64,000 nucleotides of DNA from Candidatus Omnitrophota bacterium (lineage in GTDB: Bacteria; Omnitrophota; Gorgyraeia; Zapsychrales; Fredricksoniimonadaceae), in assembly GCA_013286575.1 (NCBI GenBank), contig JABDFL010000003.1, forward strand, positions 12,196 to 76,195. Direction: 5' to 3'. The notes beneath the pieces are model-generated. The model was given only the letters and a program-made list of their open reading frames with translations, did no database searches and had not been told where the DNA came from. Below are positions 1 to 51,722 of this stretch, piece by piece; within the stretch, counting starts at the first letter, position 1; every line of letters begins with the position of its first letter. The translations under genes and the position numbers were made by a program.

Positions 1-3000
1 GGACCAGGACAAACCCTGGATATTTTGCAACCAGAAGGCAGCGGCACAAGCGGAGGTGATGAAAGCCAAAAATATAGTGTCATGAATAGAATATATGGAA
101 CAGCGACCCAGTATGCGGGGAATATCTCCAGCATTACCGGCAATATAGGCATCGCGCTAAATGTTGATCCCAGCACAGGCGCGATAACCGGCTTTGACCA
201 AAGCCCCCTGGACATGCCCGGTGCCCATTATGTTGTACCGGACCAATTCTACAATCCTTATTTGACCGCTCAAAATGTCAGTCCCGCGGGAGCTTCGGTG
301 CCGGGACAATTACCAGGCATTTATATTGGAACAAATTCAGATGGTACGGACAAAAGGTTCGCCCAAGGCGAGTTTACAGTGACCAATACAGGTATCGATG
401 CCTCGGAAGGTTCAATATTAGCTAATGTTGTTCAAGATCATTCCATGCTTTCGAATGGGAAAATAGTATCAACTCCTACCGGAGATAAATGGGTTGTTGC
501 CGATAATAAGAACATGGTAATAACTGAACAACTCCAAAATGGGACATGGGTAAAGATGGCAGGCCTTAGTTCGATTAGCGGGGATGTTGATACCTGGGAT
601 TTAAAAAATAATGTTTTAGAAAAATCTGAATCGATGAATAATTTCGAAGATGCATGGCACCATTCTTGGTTTAGTGCTGGGATGGGGGATGCCATTGATG
701 TTGTAGACAAAATCCTTGCCATTCGTTTAGTAGGGGGAACAGGGATGGATTGGATGGCATCTGATAGTACAGGAGCACCGCAAGCAGGAGAGATAAAGCA
801 ATATTTCGAAGTTAAATCCGGAGATGTTAATGTCGACAGCCGAGCTTTGGGCAATGCAGTTTCCTCTAACAATGGTCCAATGCTGTTAAATTTGACGCAG
901 GATAAATCAGGTTATGGCTTTGGCTTTGATCTGATGACAGCCATGAATGCAGAGCAACATGATGTCGGGGGGGAACTTCAAACAACACAAGGCACGACCA
1001 ATTTGGGAACAGCTTATACTGCCAACACTGATGCCAGCCAACTTATTAATATCGGTAATGGCCTGAGGGCAGGAGGCACCATCGTTTTTAATCCATTCCA
1101 AACCTTTGGCATTAATATAGACCCTGACAACACCATTGTAAAACATGAGGACACAATGACCGTGGCCAAGCCGGCTGATCAAGGAGGGGCGGCGGGTTTA
1201 GCTGTTCTCCAAGATGTCAATCTTGTCTATCAGCCAACAGCTAATGCGGAGGGATGGGAGTTGGATTCGAAAGACAGTACTACTAAAGGCTATAGCCTGA
1301 CATGGGCAAAAGCAAATGAAAACGAAGAATCAACTTCAGTAGCTGTGGCAAATATACTTGGTTTTGAAACATATGATATAGCGAGCAGTACAGCAACAGT
1401 CAGTAACGATAATAGCGCTATAGCTCTCGATGGATCATTGCTGTTGCCTACAATAACGGTAACAGCCAAAAAAGAAGATAAGCCGTCTTTACTAGAGCAA
1501 GGCGATGTTATATGGGGATTTGGTACGGATAAGGGACAAGCTCCTCCCGAATGGGAAATCCAATCAGGCAGCGAGCAAATGACCACGACTACTGTAGGAA
1601 AAGATTTGAATTTATCGAGGGGACAATTTCAATCAGAATTGAATTTAGATCCAAGCGGTCTTAACATGCAAAGTTTTGGAACATTGCTTTTAACGGCAAA
1701 GGGAGCTATCCATACAGCTGGTGAGGGAGGCTTTGTTACTCCTGGAGGGGGTTCTATAAGCCAAGGAACAACTATTGAATATGATCCTGATGCAGCTAAT
1801 GGATTTAAGACCATTGAAAAACCTTATACCCTTTCTGAGATCCTGGCAGGTGGAAGAGCAACACAGACATTTTTTCCTGATACTGAAATGCGAGCAGCTC
1901 CATCAACTTGGGATCAAATAACGGATGCAATTCTGCATCCAATTAATTGGATTTCTGGAGAATGGGAGTTGGACACTGTTGAGAATCAAAACAGAGAGAA
2001 ATTTACGGAAGCTACAGGAATATATACAGAGCCAACAAAGCTTGCCATGGCGTATAGGTATATTATGGTAAGTTCCATGTTACTTGGTGGTAACCCATTA
2101 GGAGAGACATCTCTGTTCGGGTCAGGAAGCAGCTTAATGACAAACGGATTTAAAAGCATAGGTGGTCTATATGGTTTAACCGGAGCAAAGGCGATTTGGA
2201 CTGGAGTAGGAACCACAATGGGTGTAGCGGGTGCTTCAACAACAGGGATTAATCTTTATGAAGGAAATTCGTTAGGGAGGTCCCTAGCCTATGGCGCATT
2301 TGCTACCGCTGCTGTGCCGTCACTTTATTTATTAGCCGGAGGGGCAGGGGCTTTAGGTGGTTCTAATTTATCCCTCGCTGAGAGATTTGTTCAGAATGGT
2401 TTGGGAGTAAGCTCAGACACAGCAGGTTATACGTATGCCTTGTTTGGGACGCGTTTGGTAGCTAGTGAAACCCTTACTTTGGGAGTTCCTAACGCGTTTA
2501 GTTTATATAATAATCATGGGCTTCTGCCTTGGCAAACACAGGCAACATTATTAACGGCAGGTTTTTCTTATCCACTTGCTAAGCTTTTCTCTACTTCCCT
2601 CGTCCCTACAGAAAATGAAGTTTTAGGAGCAGGATATAGAGTTCTTCAGAACGCAGTCTCTCAAGGCTTAACATGGGGAGAAATCAACGTAGGTGTCTCT
2701 GCAGCGGAGAAAGCGTATGAAGGGAAAGATGTATCCGCAGCAAATTTGTGGACGGATTATCAGAACGGATTTTGGAATGGTCTTTTATTTGGCTCCGTAG
2801 CCGGTGTTGCAGGTGAAATTGCTGGGAGCAATTTGTCGACGGTATCGAAATATGCTTTGGCTGGCGGAATCGGCAGTCTTGGGAATGTAGCTGCGGGGTA
2901 TTTACACAGCACCCAAGAGCATCCGTATACTTGGAAACAAGCGGAAGAAGATTCGTTGGTCGGTGCTGCAATGGGTGCTTTAGGATTAACTTCTTTAAAA

Positions 3001-6000
3001 AATGTAGAGTTTCTTCAAGGGCTATCATTGGGAAATAAGGCTGCGGTCTATGCTACAAGCGCGATTGTCGGTGCCGGAAGCAGAATATTAGACGAGGATA
3101 TCTTTCATTCCGATGAGAAGAATGCGTATACAATGGACAGAGCTATATCTGATGCTACCGTTGGTGCCGGCATGGGACTTTTAGGAATGAAATTTCTGTC
3201 TGGTTTGAAAGATTCGGGGATAGAGCAGACTGCAGAACAGCGCTTTGCCAGCAAAATGTTAGCGGATAATTTGTTAGACACTTCTGTTAAAGGAGCTTTA
3301 AAATGGATCACTGTTTCACCTGCGTTTACAGTCGGTAATGCTCTTTGGAATGGCCACCTGGGAGATATTAACATAAGCAAAGGCGATGCTTTTGATTTAG
3401 TTGAATCGGCCATCAATGGACCATTATCCGGACGATGGATGAACGTTATTTTTAATGCGTCCCAGGTACAGGGAGTGACACCATCGGAGGGATCTGTACG
3501 GCAAATATTGCAAAATTTGCAAAAGGGGCCCTTGGAAAGTGCTTTAGGACAGCATGCCTGGAGTAATATTATTTATATGCCGGGCTTTATGACACTTACC
3601 AATAAAGCTACAGCCAGCGTAGACGCTGTTTTGCCTGCCCCTGTTATGGGAGAAATGACAAAACAGTTTTTAAGTTTTGGAGCAATGACAGCGTTGCCTG
3701 CTTATGGGACTCGGGGGATAAAAGAGTTAACTACAGGTTATGAGTCTTTGAATGAAGGGAAGATTGAGTCTGCTGAGAAATCTTTTCAAAACGCAGTTGA
3801 TCTTGATCCTAACAATATGCAAGCCCGTGTTGGGTTGGCTAGCGTTCAGGATGCATTAGGAAGAACAACGCCAGATGCAATAGATAATTTTCAGAAGCTC
3901 GGAGCCTACGCTTTGGAAACGGCTAATAGCGGTACGTTAGATTTAGTTGTTAGAGGATTGGCCTCTGCAGGCGAATTGGAAGCTGCCCAAACATTAAATA
4001 GCAAGGCAATAGATTCAGGCAAATTCTCCAATACTGAAGCACTAACTCAAAGGCAAACAGTATTTAATCAAGCTTTGGAATTACCAAGAAATAGCGTAGC
4101 CTCTCCTGAGGACGTAGGGGCGCAAATAGACAATTTGGCTTCCGCAGCACAGGCCCAGAGTAAGGCTCAATATAAATCATTAGTGGGAGATTTGGTGGCA
4201 GTTGCCAGAGGATTGTCAGGGAAAAGCATTGATCAGGGACGTAATTTTTCAACATTGTTTGGGAATGCGGCGCTTACGCATGCAGCAGATTCTTCAAAAA
4301 TCAATGTTGCTTTAAATTTAGCGATATCTTACCAACGCGTTAGAGATTTCAATAAAGGATTGGATATTTTACAAAGATTGCCTAATGGTGCCAGGATCAA
4401 CAGAAGCATTTTAGGGATGGAAGATGAGTTAATGCAAGGACTTCAACGTATAAACACGGCGGCAAGAACCTTAGCTGAAGATGGCGATTTTCAAGAATCA
4501 GTAAATTTATTAACACAGAGGGGAGATAATGAAAGTCTTACGAGGACAATCCCCATTATTTTAAGAGCTATAAATGAGGGGGAAACAATCGATGTTCTTG
4601 GAATGAAAATAAGTAAAATTGAAGATATGCCTGCTTTATTGGAAAGAATCAAGACGCAGGTCAACAGAGAAGAATTCAGCACAGAATTGGATTCACTATG
4701 GAACCAAGTGAGTTCGAGATTGGCAGAAGCACAGAAGGCTACGGCCGGAGACCATGATTTGATAGGTAAAAATCATGCAGCTGTTGATTGGACCCAAGCA
4801 CGTAAAAATGCTGTAGGGCAAGCGGTAGAAGAAATGGTCCAAGGATTAAAGGCCAACAGGACATTTAATCTGCGAAACGGTACCATAGAAATTCATCTGG
4901 TAAAGTCAGGTTCCTTGCCTGAGGGATTTGAAAGCGGCATGGGTGTTATTAAAAGAAATAGTGATGGCACGACTAGAACAATTATTCTGGTGGAAGATGC
5001 CAAAGCTTTAGGCCATGAAGTCAAAGAAGCGGATTTTCGTTATCGTATGGATATGCATAGGATTTGGGTTGAAAGTGGCGGCAAGGAAGGCATGAAGGCT
5101 ACTGACCAACAGCTTGCATTGTGGAGCAAGAATGGATTCAAGGTGGATGATATATCCACGGATAGTAATGCCGCCCATAGATCGGTTGTGGAAGTTGGAT
5201 TTGGTGAAGGCAAAAAAGTGGCTGTGCCGAGGGCACCACCTGCTGTAGGTGAAGCGCAGGGTAATTATGACGTTTTTGGTGAAGGTCACATTTCGCAAAC
5301 TCCCTCCCAATCATTATCTTCCGGCATGGAGGCTTCTGTCATTGATCAATTCTCTACAAGTATCGATAATCTCCTTAGAGATGCAGATAAACAAACTGCC
5401 TTAGAAAATGCAGGAGAAGCTCAAGGTGAAGCTGCATTTTTATCTCTTTATACTCAAATTTTTAGAGAATATAGGGGGCAAAAAGTAGAGGCAAATGATA
5501 GTAGCATCCAAAACCAGGGAACATTGCTGCGTGAATCCAGAAGATTATTAAGAGAACTATTGACACTCAAAAATCAGTATGGGCAGGCGCTTAAAGACAA
5601 AGATGATACTGAAGGTCTAAAAAGATTGGATGCTCTTTTTGCGGGAACGGTTCGCTTTACCCAAGCTATGGATAACTTTGATTTTGGTAGCCGAGCTCAA
5701 GCTGAGGTTAGAGATACATACCAGATTAAAGCCATTGAAGCGTTAGAAAAGTTAGCCCAAGATGATCCTGTAAACGCTGCAAAATATTTATTAAAAGCAA
5801 CAGAATATCAAACGCTCCGTAGTTTGGATCAAGAGGATTTTCAATCCACAGGAGGTCCAAATGGCACAGAGCGTGTTGATACTGCATTTAAACGTGCACA
5901 AGATTTTCTAAAAGCAGCTAGGGAAGCCGACACTAAGAAGGAATACACGGAACAGTTGAATGCCCTAGAACGTAAACTCAATAGTGATGAGCAATTAATT

Positions 6001-9000
6001 AAGACACACCAAGATATTGTCATTGCGTATAATCTTATCCTTAAGGCTGCTGAAATTCAAATGTCTAAAGGGCCAGAAGGACAAATCAAGGCTCAGGCAA
6101 AAGAAGCATTAAATGCCATTCAAAGAGCTACCGATAGATTAGGTATCAACGATGATCTCCAACCGATTTTTAAACACTTAAATGACTTAAGGAGAATGGT
6201 CACTGCCATAGAAGAAACAGGCTATGTTGCAGATGTTTCAGGTTCAGATGTTAAGAAGGCTATAGAATCCAATCGTTCAATAGCACCTTCAGGTGAAACG
6301 GCCCGAGAAAAATCCGTCCGTGAATTTACTGATGGACTTCGCAGATTACAGAACCTCAAGCTTATCCTTAGGCACGATATATTACATCCCCAAAAAGAGT
6401 TGGCCAGTGTCCTTAGAGACGCATATAAGGCTTTTAATGATTGGGAAAAGCCGCGCGTTAAGACCCTTGAAAATGTGGGCAACTCTAAATATGATCCTGA
6501 TGCAATGATTGAGGAATCGCGTAGGACATGGCTTGAACCAATAAAGGGATTGAATGTAGATCTTGCAAGGAGTATCAATGATCTTATAAGAGGGGATAGC
6601 GCAAAGTATCAGTTAGGAAAAGAAGCATTATTTAGAAGTATTCAAGACCAGCTTGAACAACCTGGTTCTAAATGGAGTTTAGAAGAATTTAGCGCTATTG
6701 TGGATATTTTTAAGACGGTCCATCGACTCAACATGGAAAAAGAGAATAAGTCATGGACGGTCAAAAGTGAGGACATTGCCGGGTTAAAGGCGATGATAGA
6801 CTATGTTCAAGGAGATGGGAAAAATCCTTTAGTGTGGGTAAAAATGATGTCCGGCGGTAAAACAATGCTTTATAGGGCTTTAGCTGAACAATTGGCCACG
6901 AAAGGGATTGGCGGTAAAAAATATAGTACCGTTATTTCAACGGCGAATAGAGACCTGGCAAAGGAATTGGAAAACAATATTTTTTACAGACCCAAGGAAG
7001 ATCGTTCAGGAAAAGTGATATTAACTGAGGAGAATCTTAAGCCTATTTCCGGAAGAATTTTAGTTTTAACCCACCAGGAATTAATGGAGATCGCCTTGCA
7101 TGAGGTAAAAACAGGAAAGAATTTATTGAAAGGATATGATGTTAACCTTATTGACGAAATTCATGCGTTGATGAATTCTGCGCCCTTAATTGATGGGACA
7201 GCTTTTGAAAACGGCCGTCGGGTGTATCAATCCTTAGACCAAACTAACCAGACTAAAGTCAAAGATTGGCGAAAGGCCGAAGAATTGTTGGATCAAATTG
7301 CCCGTCAAGTTGATGCCCAAGTCAGAGAATATGAAGGCGGAAGTATTTTTGAATATACTCGTAAAGGAGATGGTGCAGCGATCATTGGATCAAGAGGAAT
7401 TAAGGAGAGCTTTAAAGCGGAGGTTGAGAAGAAATGGCGTGAAGCAGCATTAGCCCAAGGTATCCATGTTGAAAATTTGTACTCCGAAGATCAAATAAAC
7501 AAAGAATTAATGGAGAATGTTGCTTTTGCCATTGAAGGTTATGGTAAAGATTCCTACAAAGTAGATTTTAAGAACGGTGAACTTTTTATAGCTCCGGTAG
7601 AGCATGGAGATAACACAGGACGCATTAATTGGAATCAGATTTTTGGTGATGGTGGCAAAGGTTTTAATGCCCGTTCCCGTATGGTCATCGCACATTTAAA
7701 TAACTTAGCAAAGATAGGAGAATTAAAAAGCGCTTCGGGAAGAAAGTTACAAGGAATAGATGACTTATCGTATTTCATAAAGGTCATGCATGACCAAACT
7801 TCAATGGCTATGCCAGCCAACGCATTGGAACTGGTGGGGAAAAAGATTGGTGCTACAGGAACTCCCGATGAAGCTGCAGGTGCCTTATCTGCCCGTAACA
7901 GCAGCTATGTTCAATTTGAAAAGAACATCACGCTAGATATGTTAAATGTGGATGGCAGGTATTTTAAAAGCAGGCAAGCTAAGTTAGATTATATTGCTGA
8001 TGAGGTTGTGAAATCTTTGATCGCGCAAAGAGATGGGGAATTAGGTAATAAAAATGTCTTTAAACTAATCCACTTAAATGAATTACGTGACCGCCAGGAT
8101 CTCTACAATCTAATTGCAGGAAAGTTAAGAGCTGTAAACATTGAACAGAGCGGCATTTTGCACTTGGCGGACCTCCCGGAAGCCAGGCCAGTGCCCAATG
8201 AACAAAAGAGTGAGTCGGAATTAAATACCATCCAGAAAATTGCTAATAGATTCGACGCAGGTGATTATATAGGAAAGAATTTAATTGTTATTGCATCTGT
8301 CAAAGAAGGCGTCTCTTTCAGCGAAAAGGGAATTATGGATAAAAATGTCCTTTCCCAAGTTGGTATACAAGGGACAAGATTAGATCCTAATTATAGGGGG
8401 GAGGATGGTATTTGGGAAGATGTTTTGGATAAGGATGGTAAGCCCACAGAGAAGGTGCGTTTAAAAGAGAACGTTAATTTGGAAGCTAACGAAACGGAGT
8501 TTAAGAGAATTGCTGGAAAGAATGCAGAAGAAGTTTGGCATATCCTACAAGATGCCAGGGGATACGATGCAGAAGTGATAGTAGCTAGTTTAGGTTCTAA
8601 ATCTGCGGTGTTACAGACCTTGATGAGGCTTAATACAATGGATCCTGAGAAGGCAAAGAATAATCCTGCAGCGGCAGAAATTTATGAGGCCGTGAAAGGA
8701 AACCGTCTTACTGCCAAAGCAACTATCTTAACAGATGCAGAGGATCGCAATTTAACAAATGACAGCAGAGCTAGCTTTGAAAATCCAAAGATAGGCTTCT
8801 TAGATGCCGCACAGGAAGTAATGACCAAAATGGCACTTAACCAAGTAGCACACGGCATACTGAATGTTTCGCGCCAGACAGAAGGTTCAAGTATTGAAAA
8901 AGTCAGCGAAGTCATTCGTCAATTTGACCAGCGTTTGATGGATAATTTTGTCAGACAAGTTGGTACGAGACAGACTTTAGGAGGGCTTCCTTATATGGTT

Positions 9001-12000
9001 GTTCCTCAAAGTGGAGGGTTTGCTTATTATAAGGATAATAGTTTGGGATCAGACTTCGGTAATGCGACAGAGGATCAATACGAAGGAGATTTTAAACACA
9101 TGTTGTCTTTGGCGGGGGCAACAGGTTTACATGTGGATAAAAACGGCGGGGCCATTGTTCCATCAGGACATGTTTACAATATTGAAACAGGTGATGTTTG
9201 GGCATTAAATAATTATAACAGACCGGAAGCTGAAAGAGGGGATGCCTTAGGAACAGTTGTGCGGATGGTAGTTCCTAAAGAATATGTCAGCCCGTATTCT
9301 GATACGCCAGTAACCCATGAAGAACGTTCTGTTTTGGCGAAGATCACTCCTGAGTCCCAAACCAAATCCGAGCGTGTGGCAGTTGTTAACACGCATTGGA
9401 ATTGGATTGTATCCGGCATCATTTCAAAGCGTGTCAATGTTCGCTTGAACTGGATTGCCAACCAAACAATGACTCCGGAATTTAAAGGAGGGTTTTTAGC
9501 TGGAAATAATCCCATTCAAATTGGCGGACAAGAGTGGACGTCAGAAGATCCTATCAAACAGACGGAGACAGATCATTTAGGCACGGTGTATTTGGTTAAA
9601 GAAGGCAAGGGCACAAAGGATATTAAGAAAGGTGACGTGAAGTTTGTTGTGATCAAAGGCCAAATTCATCCTATTGCCAAGGGACAAGATTCTTTAAAGG
9701 CGATCATAGATCATGAGATCACTTTGCCGGATGAGACCCGTCGTGACATCAAAATGGAGGTTGAAGTTGCCATCAAAGATGGCAAGGTCACAGAGAAAAG
9801 GGGTGTGCTTAAACTCGAATCACCTATTCGTACCCAGCGCACAGTGATTAAATCCAATGGAAAGATGGTCGAAGAAACAGTAGAGCTTGAAGATGGGGAC
9901 AAGCTAGAACTTTTAAAGACTAAGAATTTAGGGGTTAAGATCACAGAAATCAGCGGGAAGAATGATGGCAAACCTAAATTTTATATGCAAGAAAACAAAT
10001 TGTACCAAGCTGTTAAGTTTAAAAATGAAGGGTATGGATTTGTCCTTCCTTCGATAGTAAAGATAGCAAAAGTCCAAGGTTCTCCCAGCGGGATGTATGA
10101 AACAGTGATGGATAAAGTTTTTATAAAGAGAGCCAGCGGTGAAATTGAATTGGACCATATTGGTATGCGTACAAAAGGAGAGAATGGTAAACCTGAAATT
10201 TTAGAAAAGACAGGCGAAATTAAACAAGGCAGAAGAACAGTCGGATATTTGCATAATGACCAACGTTTTGATATTGATCGTAACAATCCCCTTGCTCCTG
10301 TTGTTTGGGTTAATGATGACCTTGCCGGCCGTAGATTATTAAAAGTTTTAGGGTACTCTCCAACCGCTCGGCGAAATAATAAAAATCAAATTGCTGTTCC
10401 ACTGTCTAAATTTAGAAAATACGTTTTGAAAATTAAACAACAGGTAGAAATTTTAGGCACAGCTACTGATGAGCTCCGCCAGAAGAATTATGCCAAGGGA
10501 GATGAATCAGCAAAGAAAGCCATTGAAGCAGCTAAGAGTCTTTTGGATTTGTTTGGCATTGGATATACGGAATCAACAGATAAAGGTAAGCCGGTTTTAG
10601 TCATTAACCCATCAGAGTCCACACATCCTTTGGCCGAACTAGTGAACTTTGTGAGCCAATTGAATGGTTTAGGCAAGAAAGTTAAAGATGGGGCAGATAA
10701 GAAGATTCCAGCACGCGTGGTGTTTAACCCTTATTTGGAAGATAAGGGAACAGCAGGTCTGATGGGCAATGAGCAAATGGATATAGGTCCAAGTTCGTTC
10801 ATCGCATATGCTTCGGATTTTGCCCGGCTGGAAGCCGGCGTTCTGGAACACGAAGCTTTCGGACACGGTATGGGAAGAAGCTTACGGATGATGAGGACAT
10901 ATACTTTGGTAGGCCAAGGAACAATTATTGATCTTTCATCCGATCACCAGCGCAGCCAGCAGGGTATTTACGGTGGTTACAAATCAGTCAATGAAGCTTT
11001 GACTAACCCAATTATTGAAGCTGGGCTTAAATTTCTTACCGGCTTGAGACTGTTGTTTATGGGCAATATTAAACAAGCCAGAAGATTTTTTCAAGAAGCA
11101 GCTACCGTTATTGAGCGTGGGCGCAACATAGCTTATTCTATCGCTGACCGTTTTGGAGAAGCTTTAACCGTTGTTAATAAGGCTATGGCTGGTGATAAAG
11201 AAAAGGCCAAGGACATTATTTGGCATAATGATTCGGAAACAGGTATTCCCTTAGCGACAGTTATTTTAAGAGATGATGCCGGCAAGGCCATTGTTGCCGT
11301 TGCCATTCCTATCCCAGAGAAAGAGTTACCCGATGATGTTAAAAATAAAAAAGGCAATGAACTTCTTCAAGTTTTATTGGAAAAATCAAAGAAATTAATT
11401 TTAGAGCATGCTTCGATTATGGCCGTTCGGGAGGCCATTCTTGGCCGTTATGGATATGATAAACCTTTGTGGGATTTTATTAATAATAATCTTACCACTG
11501 ATTCAGAATTATGGGATGACACTGCAGATAAGGATCAAAATAAATATAAAGCGAAGATCCGTCAATTAACGATTGAAAACGCCTTGAAAGACAGTGGTAT
11601 GGTACAGGCGATTGAAGCGATTAAACAAGCAGGAATTCTGTCAGAACAAAATGCCACTCCAGTTAATGTCATGCGTATAATTTCAAGCATTTTATCTTCT
11701 GGCCAGAAGCCACAAGTCAGCAAAGATAAAAAAGTCTATACCTATACCGACCCTAGAAATAACAGATCATTTACGATTAATTTGGAAACCAATAAGATTA
11801 TTTTTTCTAAAGGAAGCGCGTCAATAAACCAATTTAACGATATTCAACAAGATTGGGAAGAAGCAGTGGCCAAAAGAAAAGCAGAACGCAATGCCCGCGC
11901 CAAAGAATTACAGGAACAAATGCAGAAAGCTGAGCGAGACTCAGCCATAGAGGCCAGTGAACGCACTTTAGATGAAGTTATTGCTATGACGCTCAATCCC

Positions 12001-15000
12001 AATGAGCCCATTCGTTTAAGCAGGATCGAAACAGGTGATGCGGCAAGCAATGTTTACCAGGTGGAATTGGCAGACAGGATGCTGCTTAATCATGAAACAG
12101 CTTATTTGCAAGCTGGGATTGAGAATAAGGTATTATCTGCAAAATCCAAAATGTTAAGAAGGACTATTACTGATGCTGAAGCCATGGCTGAAGGTGTTAC
12201 TGCCAAAGGACAGGACTTTTTAGGAAAAGATTTGGTTGATCAAGTCAATCTTTCCAGTGAAAGCTGGTTTGGGAGAAAGAAACTGACAAACATGTCAACA
12301 GCAGTAAGGATTGTATGGAATCAACTGGTGAAGGACCAGAAGGTCGCCTTTGAAAATGGCAAATGGGTCCAGAAACAGAAATTCGCTGTTTTATTTACCG
12401 CCCGTGATGAAGCAGAAGATGCTGAGCATCCCAATGCCCGTCGCGAATTGATCGAACATGAGTCTACCCACGGGAGATTTTTTACGGAAGATGATTTTAG
12501 AGATGCTACCTATGAGATTTGGCGTTCGAAATTATCGAAGAGACAGAAAAAAGAGGTAGAGAAATTCTTGGATAAGATGGGATATGATAAGCATCAACCT
12601 TGGTTAATGGCCACTGAATTTGGCGCATGGTTCAGGGATTTTAAATCAGTAACTGACATAACCGAGAAATCAGATAAATTAGGAGAACTATTCAATAATG
12701 AAACTTTGAGGAAATCTTTTGTTGCTGTCCAGGATGAATTAATAAAAATGGAAAGTGATGCCGGATATAGGGCAAAATTAGCCAGCACGTACAGAGCACA
12801 AAATATACCACCGGCAGTTGAGCCTCAGCCTGAACGACAAACCAATACACGGAGGCCTGCAGTTGAGGCCGCGCCTACATTAGCTAGCAATTCACCGGTG
12901 GTCTCCAGTGGAGAAAAAACGATAGATATGGTCATTCCAGGGGAGTCGGGTTCAAAATTACAACCTATCATTGTTCCAAGCAATATCCTTCCATCAAATA
13001 ATTTTACGTCTTCATCTTATTCTGTGACGTTTATGCCTGATGGATATCCAACTACCGCAAGCGCTCCTCAGGGAGATCAAACTAATGGTAATAGCTTTGA
13101 GCAGATCCAATTAACACCGATTACTCAGTCCATAAGCCTGCAAGATGGAAGGGATAGTTATAGACTGGCTGCAGAAGAAGCTTCTGTAAAGACACAATCT
13201 GCGCCATCAGCTAATCCGTCCGACAGCGCCATGACGGGGATATCCGGAAAAGTCGTATCAGGCGCTGCCTGGAAGCCGGGGTCATCGACGCGGGTCAGCG
13301 CGGAAAGTGTCAACAATGCCAGCATGGTCAATAATTACAGCGACGACGGGGTTGTTCTTCTTACCTTCTGGCTGAAAAAGTACGGGGTTGAAACCACCGT
13401 GACGTTAATGATTGAAAATCTTGCCGGGTTCGCGCGCACCTTTGTCGCTATTGATCCCAATGATTTTGACAAAGACAGCACCCTGGAAAGCTGGAAAGAA
13501 GCGCAGGATTTTATTACAAAGCTGATGCGCGGGCTTACAAAGCAGAAGTTTGAAGTTGATCTGCGCGCGGCGTCTGTGGTGCGGATCAAGCGTGGGCAGA
13601 ACCCTAAATTTGTACGCGGCATGTTGATGGAATTGGCGGAGTTATATGTGGGCAATGTCCCCGGCGGGCAGGTTTTGTATGCGGATGCTATGGGGGTAAA
13701 GAAACCGGTTGTCAGGGTAGTTTTCCACGCAAGTAAAAAGATTGCTTCGTCGCCTGCGGCTTTCCGTAATGAAACAACGCACAGATCTTTATTACAACGC
13801 ATTAATAACGAATTTGCTGCATTAATACATCAATTTAATTCTAAAGAGATTGCCGCGTCGCCGTTGGCTCCTCGCAATGACATGATGGGAACCAGCCCTT
13901 CGCCCAAAGCCCGATCTATTCAATTGCCCGGATTTAAAAATACCGTCATGTCAAATATCGTTGCGCAGAGCAATGCGGTTGTCCGCGAAAATATTCCTTC
14001 ATTCACCAGGGCTCTTCTGCTGCAAGCGGCAGCACACGATCCGGATTTGTTTATGAGCTTCGCTAAAGGGATTCCATTAGCCAGGGGAGAATTACCTGAA
14101 AGTGTACGCTATTATGTTTTAAGCCATTCTTCCGCATTTATTCCTCCTTTAGTCGCTGCTCAAGCCCGTTATAATTCAGAAACTGCCTTACAACAAGCCC
14201 TTGCGTTGACACTGCCTCCGGTGAGCAATGTCGGTTCCTCAGTAGCGACGGAATCGAATGTTGTTTCGCTCATCAATCCGTCGATGGTAGCGACAGACCA
14301 GGCCGATGATATTGCCATGACCACATGGCAGCATGGGAATTTAATTAAATGGCAGAAGAGCGGTGCGAGGTATTCCGATCCCAAAAAAGACGGGGCCATG
14401 ATCTATATTGACTTTGCTTTAAAAGGCCGCCTATTGCCTTTAAGAGGGAACACCGATGCCAGCATGAAAGCAGCCTTGGGTGTTGCTCCTGATGATTTCC
14501 TGAATATCGATGCCGGGGACACTAATGATAGCGGGATGATGGTCATAAAAGATTTGGAAAGCCCAGCGATCCAACAGGCCAGGGAACGTTTACGCTCAAC
14601 AGTTGTTTATATTATTCGCCATATTCAATTCCCCGGTGCTACCAAAAAAGAAGTGCGCCGCCGCATGCAGATTATTTGGACAGAAGTGCTGAGGATGTAT
14701 GGAAAAATAGAAGCAAAGGATGTCTGGCTCGAGGCAAAGAATAGAGCTAAGAGGATGCTCAACGGTGTCTCCAACACACTCAGACTGCTGCCTGGCATGA
14801 TGCCGCCGGTTAATGGGCCTGGCAGGACATGGCCTAAAGCTGATGAACGGGCGGCAGCTATTGTAATGCCATTTACACCAACTGCTCCTAAAGAGCGTCC
14901 AGGCGGACCTCCCGGACCGCCGGCACCAGAAATTGCTCCAGCTCCGCCGACTACGCCAGGAGCATTTCTGCGGGCATCATTTGTTAGAAATGCAGGTATG

Positions 15001-18000
15001 AGGGGGCTAAGATCTGATTTTAACTATGTTAATGAGAGGGAATACCTTAATAGATTCATTGTTAGGGTTGTTGCCCCGGGTATTATTTCATCTGTACTAA
15101 CCTTCCTCAGGTTAGCATACAGAAGATGGTATAAAAGAGGAAAAAGAGCAGAAGTAACTGTGTTACATGAAGTTGTAGGAAATGAAGGTTCGAAAACTGT
15201 AGGTGCGGCAAATAGAAAAAACAGTGGCTTAGCGCAAGCTATGTCCGCTGGAAAAGTAGTAGAAGCAAGATCAAGATATACCCGTTCTCGTCCTGGTAAC
15301 AGGACGTTGAGAAGCACGGATGGAATTATAAGTAGAAGCGAACGTAGCCTAAATGGCAAAGCTGCAAGAGGTGTGGGAACTGTGTCCACCATCAAGGCAG
15401 CCAGAGCCATACAAGGCATAAGCGCCCTAGGTGTGCGAGGTGTAGAAATTGCGCCCAAGGGTGGCGACCTAATCGCAAAATATAAAAATAACAATCAAAA
15501 AAATGGTGGAGTAAAGACACAGAAACTGTTTGTCCGCACAGGGAATGGCCCTAAAGAAATTAGGGCCATTCCCGCTGCCGATGCCTCGCAGAACGGCCAG
15601 CCCCGTGAAGTTATCAATGCAGAAATTGCCAGACTAGGAGGCATTCATAGTAATGGATGGTCCAAATTCAGCTTTTGGCAAAGCGTAAAAACGATCTTCC
15701 GGGCAGCCTGGTATTTACCTGCTATGAGTGTTCGGGGGCAGTTTATGTACGAATGGTGGCAAGGGCGCATTGCATTTACCCGCGCCCCGCCGCAATGGAA
15801 ATTCGGCGATGCCAATACCAAAGACGGTGAAGTTGATTATGTTATTGTTTCCCCGCTAAGCACCAGCCGCAGTAAAGCCCATGAAGTCTGGGCAGTGTTA
15901 TATCCCTACGAACCTCATTCACGAAACCCGATTAACCAGTTTACGATGCAAGAAAAAGCAAAAGCTTATCAAAGTATCCTTGATGAAGCAGTTGCAGAAA
16001 AGGTCAGCGACACTGCCAAATTTCTCGGCCGCACACCGCTTGAATTCAGTTATAGGTTTAACAGAAACAGGAAATGGAGTGATCCTAATGAAGTTGTAGA
16101 GGATGGCGATGATATCTCGCTTGTTATTCCTCTGCATGAAGAAGCTGCTTTGCAGGAATATGTCCAAAAAATACGGGCAATCATCCTGGAGTGTATTGCG
16201 CAGGAGAATGTTTGTTTTTCCCCCACAGATGAGCTGCACACCACTATTGGGTACTATATACGCCAGAATAAGGTCGCTGCGGAGAGCATGCAAATGTTGG
16301 AGCCTCACTTTTTAAAATCTGTGCGCGGCATTGGTCCTTATAGCTATACCATCCACCGGCCGTTTTTGGCGGATTCTTTTAGTATCATCATCTCCTTGCG
16401 CACATCTTCCCCGGCTGTCATGCGCATGCGCGAGCGGATAAAGGACTATGGCAGGGAAAATAACATGACCTTGGGCAAAAATGTTGGCATCGGGGACATC
16501 AACCATGTGACGGTCGCCCATATAATAGAAAATGTCGACGTCGCTAAATTAAGAGAATTATATGAGCGCTTAAATCAAGAAGCAGCAGAAATGGAAAATA
16601 GGGACAGCCCAATTGAAGTCCGTGCCCGGCAGGCGGGGTTGGTCCTTGCGCATAAGTGGGCCAGGATCCAGGGGCGGTTCATCCATCTGGGGGTGTGGAA
16701 GAGATTAAAAATCACCGGTGGACCTGATAAGGCAGTTAATTCTTGGGGGAACGGCCCGGATCCTGCCCGCAGCAGTGTGGATTTAAACGCCAGGCAGCGT
16801 GGCCGTTTTTGGAAGCTCCTCAATGGAAAGACTTCCAAACCGGCCCAGGAACCGGATGGGGATACCCGGGTTGAATTAGAAGTCATCAGGTCCCGGGCAA
16901 GGCGCCTATTTTATCAATATGGATTTGATGATTTAGGGGATTGGGCGGCAACTTTGCGTCTAACATTACCCCATTCCAAAACAGCCAGAAGGGTAAGGAA
17001 GTGGTCTCAAGAAGAGGACATGGTTATTTCAGGGGCACATACGAAATCAGCCCCTGGAGGGCCTGCCGACATTTTATTTTTCCCGCCCGCGTTTAAAAGC
17101 AAAAACGAATTATTAAGGACATTTGTCCATGAAGCAGGGGCTTCTTTCGGGTTTCCGCATCAAGCCGATGTCATTTTAGAAAATATTGTCGACGGCAAGA
17201 TCTCAACCCAAGACATCGAGATGTTAAAAGATTTAATGAGATCAATTAAAAGGATGCCGGGGTACAACTATTACGTTTTGCATAATACAAAGAAGGTGCT
17301 CGGCGTGTTTGGGATGTTGCGTAAATATGCGGTGCCCTATTTAAAATCTAAATTTAAGGGCATGCCCATCAAGGCCCTGGAGTATGGATTGCGTCCCCTG
17401 GAACGCTGGTCCATGGCGCCTGTATGGCGGTTTGCCATTGCCTGCGAAGAAGCCGGCATTAGCAATTATGCCATTGATGTTTATGACGAGGACATGGACC
17501 GCTTGCTGGAAGCGGGGGAAGGGGTTTATTTGCCGCAGCATTTTTATGATTTAGAAACGGGTGAGTGGCATGGAAAGGATGGGAAGCGTCTGGCCCAAAA
17601 ATATTTTGACCGGCTGCCTGACGGAAGGTTCCGGATTAAACAGGATATCCGCCGGCGCATCAATCCGCGGACAGACATCGGCGGTGGGTATCATATTATT
17701 ATGCTTAATTATGTTTTTTTCCTTGAAGAAGAAAAGGAAGACGGCGGGAACACCAGGTTGATCGTAAAAAGGGTTGAAGACGCGGCTGTTGATGAGGGGA
17801 TTGTGCTGACAACCGGACGTAAATGGTTTGACCGTCCGTTAGTAACAAATTTTAAAAAGATTGCAGCCTCGTTGACGCCGTATAGGGAAAGAGGCAAGGA
17901 AACGGTCGAGATCAGTTTATATCAGTGTGAAAAAGTTGACTATCAGGACGATAAAGTTTATGAAGAAATTTGGAATGACATCCTCAAAAAGCTTGCTCCC

Positions 18001-21000
18001 TATCTGGGGGAACTGGAATTGATCCGTAATTTCTGGGTTCTGGCTAAAAGTATTTATTCAAAACCCCGCCGGAACCTTCAGAAATACATTATCCATCCCT
18101 TGCGCATGCTGCGCCTGATACTCCCCATGATCGGGACTGCTTTTATCCAAAGGCTGGGCATACCGTTGCATTTATGGGTCATGGCTATTTTAGGGCACGA
18201 TTTCCTGGAAGAAGACAGGCTCCACCAGGCTGAAAATATCAATGCCATACGGGAAGTGTTCGGACACAAAGGCATCCCGATGAAATTTGACAGTAAGCTA
18301 TTGCGCAGCCTTTTGTTTATGATTCTGGTGATGACTCGGGATGTAAAGAGGGACGAGAAACACGAAGAAGAAGATGACAGGGTTTATATCGCCAGATTAG
18401 GGGATTTCAATAAATCATTACAGTTTGTAAACAGGTACTGGAAAACATTATTCCCGGGGGAGAGCCATCCTAATGCCAAAGATTATTTTACACTATTGAC
18501 ACGACGGGAGAAATATATTCTTTGGAGGGCTTCTTTGAATATAAAGGCGGTGGACAGCACTGATTATATGATTGATCCATTCTGGGACAGGCCCTTGAGT
18601 GCCATTTATGACAAAATTGAGAGGAGATTGGCCTGGGTTGGCGTGCTTTTTTCTTATAAAAGCCGTCATCTTGGTCCCAGGAGTTTTATTTTTCCTGAGG
18701 TTTGGGAGCTGATGCAAGATACTTACTTACAGTTGTATATGCCTGAATTGGTCCAGGAAGGGTTACCAGAAGGGCCTATTTCCTCGGCATCGACCGGTGG
18801 CAAGTTGGCAGGTCTATTATTGGTATTAGGAGGTGGGATGCTTTTGGCCCTTCCTGCCCATGCAGCAGAGATAACGCAAAGCTTGGCAGCTGTGGCCCCG
18901 CATGTTTCCCGCATCCCTCAAATACTTTTATCACCCATGGGCTTTATTTTTTTCAGCATAGCAATGATTAGGGCTGGGGGGACACCTGTCGTAAAGGCAA
19001 AGCTTGTAAAGTCATTGATCTCGATACTGCAGGTGTCAATATCATCGGGCGCGAAGTATTTAAAAACCATTACAATCCGTTTTCCGCAGGATGCCGGTGT
19101 GGATTTATCAGCTTTTGAAGGGCCCGTTGGACTGCAAGTCCCTGGAAATCCATTGATCGCATTTCATTTTATCAATGGAAAGTTCAGGATAATCGACGGA
19201 ATGTCTGCCAATGTGCGTCACGGAACGGTAACGATTATTCTTCCGGCTCAATCTAAGATCAGCGATGTGATCATCAGGCTGGGGGATGGAAAAGAAAATA
19301 AGGTCGGCGAGGCAGTTTTGCAGGATGAATTCATCAGGGTCCTTTATCTGGGCAACGGCCGTTTTCATTGGGAGTGGAAAAATGCAGCGTATTTTCATGA
19401 GCATAAAGACCATAGGACCACAACTGCTGCTAAAGCTGCAGTTAAAGATCCATCCATGTCCGCTTCTCGGTCTCTGATAATTGGTGTTGCCGGTGTATTA
19501 GCATCATTATTTATTCCCGGCTTTGCGCATGCCGGAACATTTGCGTATATTTTTGGAGATATTTTTGTTCTGGATAATCTTTTTCTTCCTTCAAACATCA
19601 AGTTAATAGGGTTGGTGCTATGGATGCTTCTTATGGGGGCAGTCATAGTTTTTTGCGGCATTATGATGTTCCGTGGGGAGAGAGGTAGTCCTATTCGGGC
19701 AAACCCGGCGGCTGGTTCCGCCGGAGGGTTCAAATTTATTGTCAGTCTTTTTGAAAATCCACGATGGCCATTGTACCAAGTCTTTGGCCCAAGCTTTCAG
19801 AGGATCATTAAAAACACCTTCGGTCCCATGGAGGGGCTGGCATTGGCTGATATTGGGACATTTGATCTGTATTTTCCCGCCGAAATATCTCGTCAGGTAA
19901 GCGTGAAAATTTTAAGCGCTATTTGGGGTATCGATAAAGAGCTCCCGGCAGAATACGAAGGTGACGTTGTTAAATTGAGCTCCAGGGCCGTAGCATATGT
20001 TACAAGGGTCATGCAGGAGCGCCAAGCCGATCCTCGCATTAAACATAAAATATTAGACATCACCTCAGATGCCGGCGACTTGTTTTTAATGCAGGGAGAC
20101 ATTCATATCCTGACGTTCAATCACCCGGAACTTGGGAAAGAAGTAATGGACAGGATATTAAGAGCTTTTAGTCTTTCAGAAGGTCCCAAGCTGGTTTTGA
20201 TGAGGCTTCATCCCATGGATGACAGCGACAATACTTATAAGGAATGGATTATTGGCGGGCTCAGGGCATTGGGGTACACGGTTAAAATTTATCCTTCATT
20301 AAAGGGCTATCCCAACAGTTGGAGCACTGCGATCTACACGCCCCATGGGCCGGTTATTGTGGCCAGCCGTCCTGTTGGGGACGGGGAGAAATACGCACAA
20401 GATCCGATTTTTAATATGCAACACCCGGCCCGCACATTTACCGCAGTTGGCATTGCTTTCTTGGCCGTCTTGACCTCACCCGTTGCCCATGCCGCCGAGA
20501 GGAGTACAGGTTTTATGGGGGGGACAGGGACCGGTTTATCATGGTTAATAGGACTGATGTTAGTTTTAGTTGCGTGGCCATTTTTGGTTATTGCATGGGA
20601 TTACTTGAGTGGGATTTTTTGGTTCCGGCAGAAAGATTTATTTTTACAACAGGCATGGTTTATCGAGAAGCAGCTTTCAGACCTGGACAGATCACAGGAA
20701 AATAGAAAGGGCAGTCCCGCGTTTTATCAGGGAGGGCTTAATAGATGGCTTAGAGAATGGGAGAATTTATGTCAAGAAAATAGGAATCTCACAAATGGAA
20801 TTGCGGTATTCTTTGTCCCCTGGCGAGATTTTGATCATAGAATCAGCACTGTTAAAAAAAGGATCCAGGCCAGGATCAATGGGACCGAAGTTCCGTCGCC
20901 AACCGGCCACCCAGCCGCCGAAAGCCGGTTGCAAGGGACCATGTCCCTGTTCAGGAATTTAGCCGACAAAAGTATTTTATTACCGGCCATTTTGCTTATG

Positions 21001-21433: not shown

Positions 21434-23221
21434 TTAGGTGCGCAGGAATTGGCGGTCGAGGAAACTTTGGGTCACTTCAATGAGCGTTGGGCGGCCATGC
21501 GGGCAGGTGAAAGGGTCTTTGCATTCAAGTAATTGTTTGCGCTGGTGATCAGCTTGGGAGACATCAATCTTATCCCCGGCGACGATGGAAGCTTTGCAGG
21601 CGCGGCGGGCCAGGGCCGCAGGGTCCATGCGCGGGGCTTCTTCACCGGACAATAGGGTCCGCACCACATTTTCGATATTTTTAAGCAGTAGCGGTTGGGT
21701 TTGCACGGCAATAGTATCATCATCAAATTGGGTGGTTTCGATGCCCGCAGCAGTCAGTTTTTCTTCCAGTTCTTCCCAAGCGATTTTTTCCTGAGGGGTC
21801 AATTTCAATAACAAAGGTGTGAGCAAAGGCTGGCTTTCAACTTTTGCGCTTTCGATTTGGTCCCTGAACCTTTCATACATGATACGTTCCTGCGCCGCGT
21901 GCTGGTCCACGATCAACAGCGATTCATCAGCTTCAAAAAGTAGGAACTTTTGCAGGAAAGAACCTACATACCTTGCCCGGGTGAATTTGGAGCGCAGGGT
22001 ATTCTCCTCGCCAAAAAGCTGGAAATCCATAGGAAGGCTACTGCTCTCCTGAGTGTCATTGCGAGCGAAGCGAAGCAATCTTTTTTCATTTTCTGTGGGA
22101 ACATAGGTGCCCGGATTAAATTTTGCCTGCAATTGCCCTGGGGCAAAAATTAATTGATCTGCAGGCAGTCCTTGTGTTGTTTCTGGATTCCCGACAGAAG
22201 CATTCGGGAATGACATGTGTTTGGGAGAGCCCTTATGCATCAGCTGGTATTCCGTCATGCGGCGTAATAAACGGATAAGCATGGCTTCGTCCTTGATACG
22301 CACCTCACGCTTGGTGGGATGAATATTGACATCCACATTGGCGGGATCCAGGGCAATATCGACGATGAAAGCCCCATAGACGCCCGGCGGCAGGATGAGC
22401 TTATAAACATCATTGAGATTAAAACTTAAGTTTTTGCTTTCAACCGGACGATGATTGATAAAAATAAATTGTAAATCCCGGCGGGGACGCTGGACATTGA
22501 TATTGCCTAAGATCATCCTCACGCGGATTTTCTCTTCAACATATTCCTGGTCTGTTTCCAGAAAATCTTTCATAGGGACATTTAAAGCGGCAGCGGCACG
22601 GTCTAAGCGTGAAGGGGCAGGCCTTAAATCCAAAAGGCTTCGACCGGCGTGCGTTAGCATGAAACGTATTTGCGGGTAGATCAAGGTATAGGGAAGCACG
22701 ATATTGAGGATTTGATTTAGTTCTGACGTGTTATTTTTAAGGAATTTACGGCGGGCAGGGGTATTAAAGAAAAGTTCAGCGATCTTGATGTCTGTGCCGG
22801 CCTGTGCCAAGGCAGTCGGCTCAAGTTTTTGGCGCACGCCGCCCCTGATATGGATTTGCCAGCCTTCGCCTGTCGGGGTGCGTGAAGATAAGGTCACGTC
22901 ACTGACAGCCGCGATGGAATACAGCGCTTCCCCGCGAAAACCCATGGAATGAAGTTTTTCCAGGTCTTCAATGGCGGAAATCTTGCTGGTGGCATGGCGC
23001 CGGAAGATTTTTTCCAGGTTCTCCCGGGCTATGCCGGAGCCGTTGTCCTTGATATGGATAAATTCTTTACCGGCATCTTTAAGATGTATTTCAATGTGCG
23101 TTGCCCCTGCATCAATGGCGTTTTCCAGGAGTTCTTTAACAACAGAAGCCGGCCGGTCCACTGCTTCTCCGGCGGCGATTTTAGCGATCACATCTGGGGG
23201 GAGAATATTAACTTTAGTCAT
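21434..23221 (-). CDS. mutL: DNA mismatch repair protein MutL
   Basis: This 595-aa protein has GHKL ATPase motifs 'ELLENAIDAGA', 'DNGSGI' and 'GFRGEAL', and C-terminal 'DQHAAQERI' and 'CPHGRP'. Its linker region carries two in-frame repeat insertions. Confidence 0.95.
   Translation of the reverse strand: MTKVNILPPDVIAKIAAGEAVDRPASVVKELLENAIDAGATHIEIHLKDAGKEFIHIKDNGSGIARENLEKIFRRHATSKISAIEDLEKLHSMGFRGEALYSIAAVSDVTLSSRTPTGEGWQIHIRGGVRQKLEPTALAQAGTDIKIAELFFNTPARRKFLKNNTSELNQILNIVLPYTLIYPQIRFMLTHAGRSLLDLRPAPSRLDRAAAALNVPMKDFLETDQEYVEEKIRVRMILGNINVQRPRRDLQFIFINHRPVESKNLSFNLNDVYKLILPPGVYGAFIVDIALDPANVDVNIHPTKREVRIKDEAMLIRLLRRMTEYQLMHKGSPKHMSFPNASVGNPETTQGLPADQLIFAPGQLQAKFNPGTYVPTENEKRLLRFARNDTQESSSLPMDFQLFGEENTLRSKFTRARYVGSFLQKFLLFEADESLLIVDQHAAQERIMYERFRDQIESAKVESQPLLTPLLLKLTPQEKIAWEELEEKLTAAGIETTQFDDDTIAVQTQPLLLKNIENVVRTLLSGEEAPRMDPAALARRACKASIVAGDKIDVSQADHQRKQLLECKDPFTCPHGRPTLIEVTQSFLDRQFLRT
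22053..22084 (+). repeat. type-1 palindromic repeat copy inside the mutL linker
   Basis: The sequence is 'gtgtcattgcgagcgaagcgaagcaatctttt'. On the mutL strand it is translated as 'RLLRFARNDTQE'. Confidence 0.85.
22183..22216 (-). repeat. type-2 hairpin repeat copy inside the mutL linker
   Basis: The sequence 'ctggattcccgacagaagcattcgggaatgacat' has an 8-bp stem (attcccga/tcgggaat). On the mutL strand it is translated as 'MSFPNASVGNPE'. Confidence 0.8.
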
Positions 23222-23222
23222 A

Positions 23223-23262
23223 AAAAGATTGCTTCGTCGCCTTCGGCTTCTCGCAATGACAC
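23223..23262 (-). repeat. type-1 palindromic repeat copy filling the mutS-mutL spacer
   Basis: The sequence 'aaaagattgcttcgtcgccttcggcttctcgcaatgacac' occupies essentially the whole 41-nt gap between the mutS stop (23263-23265) and the mutL start (23219-23221). Confidence 0.9.
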
Positions 23263-33658: not shown

Positions 33659-33722
33659 ATTAAAGATTTAGTTACAATCGATTTTCTGCATCTATAGTAT
33701 TATATGTTGGATGAGGTGTGAT

Positions 33723-34165
33723 ATGGCGGGTAAGAAAAGTTTTACCTTGATGGAAATAATAGTGACGCTGATGGTGATCGGTGTCTTGGCCGCCATTTCC
33801 ATTCCTGCCTATAATACTTTCGTACAAAATGGGGCTTCCCAGGCTGCTGCCAATAATTTGTCTGCCATTTATGGGGCGGAACAGAATTATTATTTCAAAA
33901 AGGGAACGTATTGTGTCAATACAGGTTCCAATCCCACGTGCGCAGATACCCTGCCGGACATCAACGCCAATTTGTCGTTAAACGTTACTGACAATTATTA
34001 CTCCTATTCGTGCGCAATGCAGGTATCTAGTACGAATGCAATTTGCTGTTCGGCAACTGCGAATAATTCGAATTTTCCGGCTGTAGCTTCCAAATGTGGA
34101 GGAACGTGTACTCCCAACTGTGTCGGGGCTGTTTGCGGGGCATCTGACGGATGCGGCGGCACATG
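33723..34165 (+). repeat. duplicated pilin 5' segment (copy 1 of 2)
   Basis: This 443 nt is colinear without indels with 35164-35606, at a constant offset of 1441 nt. I counted 18 amino-acid differences in the first ~148 codons by hand. Confidence 0.85.
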
Positions 34166-35054: not shown

Positions 35055-35163
35055 GCCTTAAAGACCTGCATGATGTCGATGGATCTTGAAAAATCAATGT
35101 TAAAGAATTTCTAATGTTTGATTTCTCCCGTTTTTGGTGTTATATATTTATAAGAGGTATAAT

Positions 35164-35606
35164 ATGACGGGTAAGAAAAGTTTTACCTTGATGGAAATAA
35201 TAGTGACGCTGATGGTGATCGGTGTCTTGGCCGCCATTTCCATCCCTGCCTATAATACTTTCGTACAAAATGGGGCCTCCCAATCTGCTGCCAATAATTT
35301 GTCTGCCATTTATGCGGCTCAACAGAATTATTACTTCAATAAGGGAACGTATTGTGTCAATACAGGCTCCAATCCCACGTGCGCAGATAACCTGTCGGAC
35401 ATCAACACCAATTTGTCGTTAAACGTTACTGACAGCTATTACTCCTATTCGTGCGCAGTGCCGGGATCTGGTACGAATGCAATTTGCTGTTCGGCAACTG
35501 CGAATAATTCGAATTTTCCGGCTGTAGCTTCCAAATGCGGGGGAACGTGTACTCCCAACTGTGTCGGAGTTGCTTGCGGAGGATCTAACGGATGCGGCAG
35601 TACATG
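35164..35606 (+). repeat. duplicated pilin 5' segment (copy 2 of 2)
   Basis: See 33723-34165. The alignment has a constant 1441-nt offset and no indels. Confidence 0.85.
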
Positions 35607-51712: not shown

Positions 51713-51722
51713 TTCATTTAAG

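Follow-up and report, generated by a model that had tools for sequence, protein, structure and literature searches.

A probable mosaic breakpoint and translated short repeats in a modular giant gene of an Omnitrophota bacterium

A 64,000-nucleotide (nt) stretch of contig JABDFL010000003.1 from Candidatus Omnitrophota bacterium assembly GCA_013286575.1, analysed here as a whole and hereafter called the window, begins inside a giant gene that an initial annotation had read as two once-separate genes fused together. Of this gene, the final 21 kb (1–21036, +) are visible: its open reading frame (ORF) runs from window base 1 to a stop codon at 21034–21036 and comprises at least 7,011 codons (21,036 nt), so that an earlier listing of the ORF as 7,003 amino acids (aa) was too short, and the gene extends past the 5′ end of the window because the frame is already open at the first base. 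The composition of the gene changes abruptly near nt 13216, and two copies of a short repeat are translated in frame further on. We read this seam, with a probability of roughly 60%, as a recombination breakpoint in a mosaic modular giant gene, in which copies of an element resembling repetitive extragenic palindromic (REP) sequences lie independently in the linker after the first downstream module, module A. Fusion of two separate genes is unsupported, and a mosaic breakpoint is our best reading.

The composition break is a step. A maximum-likelihood change-point search placed it at nt 13216, with a 2-lnL support interval of 13174–13261 (+) and a log-likelihood ratio of 53.7, compared with a maximum of 7.1 among 200 permutations, which agrees with the switch that the initial annotation had put near 13141–13201. 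Mean GC content rises from 0.421 (1–13215) to 0.471 (13216–21036), with a standard deviation of 0.06–0.08 among 60-mers. The four 60-mers from which a contrast of 35–42% to 52–60% had been drawn were rightly counted (0.40, 0.35, 0.517 and 0.60) but are unrepresentative, the real means being 42.1% and 47.1%. GC at third codon positions (GC3) is 0.352 upstream and 0.477 downstream of the change point, and at four-fold degenerate (4-fold) sites GC goes from 0.367 to 0.533. Within the upstream block the two halves have 4-fold GC of 0.351 and 0.384 and those of the downstream block 0.534 and 0.531; because the half-blocks agree internally, the change is a step with no gradient. The uniform GC and codon-usage profile that the initial annotation had named as fatal to its idea was not observed, a synonymous-site step being computed instead. 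Amino-acid usage differs as well, with R, P and F richer downstream and N, Q, T and E richer upstream.

The upstream block (1–13215, +; GC 0.421, GC3 0.35, 4-fold GC 0.37) is unlike the host genes around it. Housekeeping genes of the window have a 4-fold GC of 0.679, and an AT-rich island at 52.5–61.7 kb has 0.294; by relative synonymous codon usage (RSCU) the upstream block lies closest to that island (distance 2.0) and at 5.2 from the housekeeping genes, while the downstream block is intermediate, with a distance of 3.4. The giant genes of three relatives are only 0.05–0.08 below their neighbouring genes in GC3. The downstream block shows a moderate shortfall of about this size (0.48 versus 0.52–0.61 in neighbouring genes), and the upstream block lies about 0.20 below its neighbours. 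At synonymous sites, the upstream block combines a composition unlike that of the host genes with a sharp boundary, as a laterally acquired or mosaic segment would. The earlier picture of an AT-rich, possibly foreign 5′ part joined to a host-like 3′ part survives to this extent: the synonymous composition differs, the 5′ part stands well apart from the housekeeping genes (4-fold GC of 0.37 versus 0.68), and the homology of relatives breaks at the seam. What does not survive is the fusion of separate genes.

The seam lies at a type of junction that recurs in this family of giant proteins. A low-complexity linker of about 160 residues (12787–13275, +), in which S, T, P, G, N and Q make up 40–65% of each 40-aa window, leads into it, confirming that the switch falls inside an S/T/P-rich stretch. 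At 13222–13287 (+; aa 4400–4421) stands the motif DSAM-x14-PGSS. In the giant-protein family, D-x-A-M followed 8–14 residues on by [P/V]GSS[V] is a module-start motif, and it precedes modules in the homologous proteins P0121, P0122, P0123 and P0131 and in a homologous metagenomic locus, L128. The composition step falls, within about 15 residues, on this recurring junction type, at which homology to different relatives begins or ends; the motif may serve as a connector or mark a processing site. Module A, the first module of the downstream block, has a core (13276–13704, +) that aligns with P0121, P0123 and L128 and that was modelled with a predicted local distance difference test score (pLDDT) of 59–76. 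Module B (14230–14859, +), which opens with NVGSSVATES (NVGSS at aa 4736; 14230–14250), is 39–49% identical to P0121 and P0122 and 48% identical to L128. An AlphaFold2 model of aa 4395–4945, built from a five-sequence alignment with a mean pLDDT of 45 and used only for its low-confidence stretches, is weakest at the seam (model residues 1–60) and in the repeat region (model residues 166–264) and best in the module A core; the modelled portion of the linker, from nt 13207 on, has low pLDDT. The DSAMTG at the seam was also considered as a relic of the right arm of the repeat and rejected, since chance can account for its match of 12 in 15 nt and homologues encode D-x-A-M with codons unlike the arm.

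Relatives of the gene break at the same place from either side. A full HMMER search with aa 3793–4992 against 1.84 billion representative proteins returned only 20 matches. Homology to P0121, part of a giant gene on contig L005 that frameshifts have broken up, spans aa 4400–4939 and begins exactly at DSAM, and the 10 kb upstream of P0121 in L005 show no similarity to the upstream block of the window. P0131 (2,371 aa, contig L007) aligns with aa 2841–4347 and ends about 50 aa short of the seam, past which it has a low-complexity linker of its own, a DNAM...PVGSS motif and an unrelated module; the modules of P0122 and P0123 likewise open with [P/V]GSS. Homologues of the upstream block are distant only (22–23% identity in P0131, 22–24% in L128). 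Word-based protein searches gave no match with either a 1,200-aa seam-spanning query or a 1,500-aa query from the upstream block, and scans of GTDB genomes and JGI metagenomes with single seam-spanning proteins found no relative.

A further test of the seam comes from L128, the one locus returned by a JGI metagenome scan with a three-sequence alignment of module B (a five-sequence module alignment was too divergent for scanning). This 91.8-kb contig is a single open frame over all 20.5 kb examined, and it matches the window protein colinearly at aa 2343–2640 (L128 aa 1117–1446, 22% identity), aa 3552–3824 (aa 2293–2608, 24%), aa 4415–4996 (aa 2999–3577, 30%) and aa 5014–5194 (aa 5176–5359, 30%). 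L128 has no GC3 step at the equivalent junction, where the log-likelihood ratio is about 5, with a best value of 10.5 elsewhere. L128 and L005, from different metagenomes, are colinear over 20 kb, with protein identities by block of 31%, 38–57%, 61%, 87% and about 30%. Because identity jumps blockwise between these two, block mosaicism is a property of the giant-gene family. The initial annotation had proposed a check for orthologues that carry the two halves as separate genes. None was found: L128 is one ORF colinear across the seam, weakly so on its upstream side, and the division of L005 into nine gene calls is due to frame changes, which are probably long-read assembly errors.

The two repeats are a separate matter. 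Copy 1 (13736–13775, +; core 13741–13773), which is diverged, is read in frame as KKIASSPAAFRNE (KKIASSPAAFRNET), and copy 2 (13843–13883, +; core 13849–13881) as KEIAASPLAPRNDM, so that their in-frame translation, reported initially, is upheld. Both cores follow the module A core, in a linker that varies among homologues. In P0121 the same linker is P/A-rich; in P0123, on contig L006, it holds one copy of the element, KEIASSQAPRNDE, and L006 has a second, identical copy in the next module (L006 positions 935 and 1912). L128 carries two copies, NEIASPEKRLAMT and KIASSPSGFLAMT (at 9491 and 9908), together with partial duplications. The window MutL contains a further copy, translated in its hypervariable linker, that is missing from 18 MutL homologues. 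Presence in some homologues and absence from others, in P0121, P0123 and L128 as in MutL, is the behaviour of an in-frame insertion of the kind known from Rickettsia palindromic elements (RPEs). Either the giant-gene linker was hit repeatedly or an old copy was refreshed in some lineages. The initial annotation had taken the repeats for absorbed intergenic or linker DNA, which does not hold: they lie 0.5 kb (520 nt) past the step, with a complete module between, and the MutL copy is translated too. Because the repeats sit past a complete module in a variable linker and the same element occurs in MutL, the composition break and the repeats have separate causes, and what ties the repeats to the seam is merely that both lie in inter-module linkers.

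These observations can be brought together as follows. The giant gene would encode a modular, cysteine-poor chain, the protein ending in a membrane anchor, and blocks of different evolutionary history would meet at about nt 13216, at a low-complexity linker followed by D-x-A-M...PGSS. The downstream block (modules A and B, the segment in common with the giant protein of contig L001, and a transmembrane tail) may be the resident part of the gene, which fits because aa 5577–6205 are common to the syntenic L001 protein; the upstream block, of at least 13 kb, would most likely have arrived when the gene recombined with a diverged, AT-richer version of itself, either replacing a segment or being grafted on, with the breakpoint in the junction. 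The two element copies, in a variable and probably disordered linker after module A, would be independent of the seam, having either inserted once and been held near the family consensus or struck the linker repeatedly. Translated copies would be tolerated because the sense orientation reads through without stops (IAS...RND). A comparable arrangement is motif-delimited cassette swapping in polymorphic toxins such as Rhs and CdiA, in which a variable small C-terminal tip is exchanged together with an immunity gene. The likeness lies in the abrupt composition step that a single long ORF shows at a short, conserved motif in the peptide, and in relatives that differ in sequence on one side of that motif; unlike in the toxins, both sides of the giant gene are many kilobases long, the motif is different and no toxin or immunity domains were found.

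Several observations weigh against this account. The collections searched contained neither a donor nor a close homologue of the upstream block, and because no donor was found, composition alone points to its lateral origin. The seam is known only from a metagenomic contig assembly. The colinearity of L128 on the upstream side consists of two weak matches (38.9 and 37.7 bits, the maximum of 30 shuffles being 28.9), although their order is kept. The downstream block, too, is far under the housekeeping genes in 4-fold GC (0.53 versus 0.68). As for the repeats, L005, whose flanking DNA is 89–93% identical to that of L128, has a degenerate look-alike of the element at the first L128 site and no recognisable copy at the second. 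Gain and decay of the element therefore do not separate cleanly, and the look-alike weakens what had been a candidate case of clean presence and absence between the two loci.

Could both blocks share one origin and differ through local forces, such as GC-biased gene conversion in a downstream block that recombines frequently or constraints of mRNA structure and translation on an extracellular as opposed to a membrane-proximal part? The giant genes of three relatives are all somewhat AT-shifted compared with their neighbours, and the two blocks differ in amino-acid composition, as this explanation would have it. However, the step is completed within about 90 nt and is flat on each side, the difference is strongest at 4-fold sites, and L128 lacks a step at the equivalent junction; we therefore consider a common origin unlikely.

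An assembly chimera, in which the assembler joined the giant genes of two related populations of different GC content at a shared stretch and happened to keep the frame, is improbable. In its favour, the sequence comes from a metagenomic contig (83,858 nt), the composition changes abruptly, the AT-rich block reaches the window edge and no database sequence confirms the join. Yet the junction is weakly conserved in DNA among the relatives seen, and because of this a long exact overlap there is unexpected. Blockwise mosaicism also occurs naturally between two independent assemblies, L128 and L005, and another AT-rich block of the contig has ordinary island features, namely flanking tRNA genes and an IS1595 element.

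A different possibility concerns the element rather than the seam: that it is not passive but a broad-host-range element that supplies in-frame microhomology for module shuffling, or acts as an RNA- or DNA-level signal in transcripts of 20–90 kb. The element is nearly identical from Bradyrhizobium to Patescibacteria and Omnitrophota, and its copies in giant-gene linkers share the frame of the left arm and occur in the sense orientation only. We hold such a role to be quite doubtful.

Least of all do we credit a fusion of a foreign AT-rich gene to a host-like one with the repeat-bearing spacer absorbed into the frame, which would account for a composition step and a homology break at one place and for most other element copies lying in spacers, but which is at odds with the conserved module that separates step and repeats, with homologues that are continuous through the repeat site, with the single colinear ORF of L128, with a seam motif typical of internal module starts, and with an element translated in MutL where no fusion is involved. 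An internal promoter at 13.2–13.9 kb was likewise rejected, as that region has one 9-of-12 match and fewer promoter-like sites than shuffled sequence, with no signal above chance.

The element itself has, in the genome of the window, the consensus tAAAAAG-ATTGCTTCGTCGC-(loop)-CTCGCAATGAC-Ac and a length of about 33–40 nt. Seven copies occur in the 64-kb window, where the expected number of chance matches to the pattern is zero; such dispersed copies, far above chance, are what REP-like sequences or miniature inverted-repeat transposable elements would show. Besides the two in the giant gene, copies lie at 22055–22079 (−), translated in the mutL linker as KRLLRFARNDT; at 23228–23260 (+), filling the 41-nt mutS–mutL spacer antisense to both genes; at 47491–47521 (−), between fpg and pyrK; at 49977–50007 (−), between pyrF and an amino-acid permease gene; and at 51458–51492 (−), covering the last 21 nt of the permease gene ahead of tRNA-Val. 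The initial statement that most other copies sit in or at the edge of spacers is correct for four of these five (23228, 47491, 49977 and 51458), the fifth (22055) being in frame in mutL. Their description as palindromic needs qualification: an outer stem of 5 bp (ATTGC/GCAAT) and a short, variable inner stem are present, but folding energies are no better than those of shuffled sequences. Both the AT-rich upstream block and the AT-rich island are free of copies (chance about 0.04), which weakly suggests that these two regions are younger.

Orientation separates the coding from the spacer copies. All seven coding copies (three in the window, two in L006 and two in L128) run in the sense direction, and each of the four spacer copies of the window is antisense, so that the transcript of the latter shows the purine-rich strand and then a U-run. 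Selection against a terminator-like form within genes is one possible cause of this bias. A role of the spacer copies as intrinsic terminators, with a hairpin and U-run in the transcript, was not confirmed: a consensus terminator scan calls none and folding energies are ordinary, which leaves the orientation bias alone. No target-site duplications were seen at the flanks of the element, where there is a conserved A-rich leader instead. Among the scanned window ORFs, no REP-associated tyrosine transposase (RAYT), Y1 or TnpA protein was present, the only transposase-like ORF being of the IS1595 type. Rfam has no family for the element, and literature searches by sequence string and peptide string found no description of it.

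A second hairpin repeat type, TCATTCCC-loop-GGGAAT, is found at 22187–22213 (−), translated in the mutL linker as MSFPNASVGNPE, and again at 49221–49242 (+), between pyrD and pyrF. The MutL linkers of related Omnitrophota hold similar repeat-like peptides (SFPNA..GNP, HSRESGNP and VILSEAKNL).

In other genomes, an exact-pattern scan covering one genome per species returned at least 120 stretches. Among the matches listed, the hosts are Bradyrhizobium and other Alphaproteobacteria, Chloroflexota, Patescibacteria, Armatimonadota, Bacteroidota, Desulfobacterota, Verrucomicrobiota and Omnitrophica; the arms hardly vary among them, and covariation is seen in the inner stem (for example GCCC/GGGC, GACC/GGTC and GCGC/GCGC). 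Of these listed elements, 31% lie in frames of at least 300 codons, compared with 63% of random positions, and because it is depleted from long open frames the element is mainly extragenic. Two loci, L064 (Chloroflexus sp. JANWYE010000048.1) and L089, contain arrays of 5–7 copies about 70–160 nt apart with repeated flanks; outside these arrays the copies are dispersed.

Two known kinds of repeat resemble the element. REP sequences and bacterial interspersed mosaic elements (BIMEs) are mobilised by RAYT transposases, have a GTAG-type head and are usually lineage-specific. Like them, the element is short, imperfectly palindromic, mostly extragenic and present in high copy number, fills spacers within operons (mutS–mutL and the pyr genes) and is biased in orientation relative to transcription. 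Unlike them, it lacks a GTAG-type head, has no Y1 or RAYT protein among the window ORFs and is near-identical across phyla. The closest described parallel is the RPEs, which one account describes as elements of about 150 bp, found in frame in unrelated genes, to which they add a conserved peptide (PMC10969869). Shared with these are the in-frame position in unrelated protein-coding genes, the conserved peptide, the unbroken host gene and the further intergenic copies; the element differs in its length (about 33–40 nt versus about 150 bp), in its spread over many phyla rather than one genus, in its weak hairpin and in having no recognisable terminal inverted repeats or target-site duplications.

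The gene belongs to the giant genes known from Omnitrophota (bioRxiv 10.1101/2023.11.21.568195; 10.64898/2026.06.07.730766). Downstream of it the window carries mutL, mutS, a trmB-like gene, genes for a D-Ala-D-Ala carboxypeptidase and a dsbA-like protein, glmS, a pyr operon and genes for tRNA-Arg, tRNA-Val and tRNA-Asp. MutL has many homologues at 73–84% identity, several of them labelled Candidatus Omnitrophica bacterium. The order glmS ... mutS–mutL is kept on three related contigs, each with a giant gene beyond mutL, and the assignment follows from this shared order and neighbour; the syntenic giant proteins beside mutS–mutL measure 29,339 aa (GCA_041643075.1, L001), 8,808 aa and 16,729 aa. 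The segment at aa 5577–6205 (16753–18639, +) is homologous to the C-terminus of the first of these (tblastn, 36% identity over 661 aa, E = 2e-96).

The overall build of the protein agrees with that placement. A Kyte–Doolittle scan finds about eight hydrophobic helices in the last 750 residues (18805–21033, +), a likely membrane anchor as predicted from hydropathy, and no hydrophobic segments in the first 4,397 residues, which make up the upstream block. Cysteine is absent from those 4,397 residues and rare elsewhere (6 of 2,606 residues in the downstream block, 2 of 6,852 in L128 and 2 of 2,371 in P0131). Dockerin-type giant proteins of Omnitrophota are described, in the main text of one report, as having an N-terminal bulk without transmembrane segments and C-terminal transmembrane helices (10.1101/2023.11.21.568195). 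The window gene shares with the giant genes of this phylum its host group, its very long ORF and that distribution of helices, and differs in having no above-threshold Pfam domain in the visible 7,011 aa. Neither Pfam nor NCBIfam gave an above-threshold domain there, with HEAT, SecA, dockerin and TSP3 all absent from the Pfam result; the sole Pfam match is a sub-threshold TPR_16 (17.6 bits versus a cut-off of 32.7). The features that define the archaeovorin and dockerin-type classes (10.1101/2023.11.21.568195) are thus missing from the visible 7,011 aa, and the 5′ part outside the window may differ. By term search, the main texts of the two giant-gene reports do not mention palindromes or mosaicism; that of 10.64898/2026.06.07.730766 does not mention recombination or GC content, and that of 10.1101/2023.11.21.568195 does not mention fusion and has the term GC content three times.

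The last folded domain of the upstream block (12322–12654, +; aa about 4100–4210) lies about 190 aa ahead of the seam. In an alignment with 12 small homologous proteins, HExxHG...W...YD...NE..A is invariant, and the domain is common to at least 12 small stand-alone proteins and P0131. It has no sequence match in Pfam or the PDB, and by its motif it looks like a zincin metallopeptidase. A link between this domain and the junction, through self-processing, was considered, but L128 has no equivalent domain there.

Two other regions of the window stand apart. The AT-rich island (51507–61700; GC 0.34, GC3 about 0.29), probably a mobile defence island, begins right after tRNA-Val and tRNA-Asp. Its genes include those for a C5 DNA methylase, a ddrB-ParB-like protein, an SNF2 helicase, a NOV_C-domain protein and an IS1595-type transposase. 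At 33711–37794 (+), tandem repeats of 135–267 nt build two adjacent ORFs of 447 and 886 aa that encode cysteine-rich units (D-A-C-G-V-C-G-G). The first 300 nt of the two are 94% identical, and neither has a Pfam match.

The locus combines a mosaic modular gene with in-frame REP-like insertions, each of a known kind, in a setting, the giant genes of Omnitrophota, that has only recently been reported. It pictures these genes as chains of modules with low-complexity linkers between and a recognisable junction motif, in which the blocks flanking a junction can differ in history and the linkers accept short repeats that are then translated. The element of about 33 nt, preserved at nearly every base in many phyla, merits separate study. 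Should read data bear out the seam, it would be direct evidence that giant genes exchange blocks, beyond growth by internal duplication alone.

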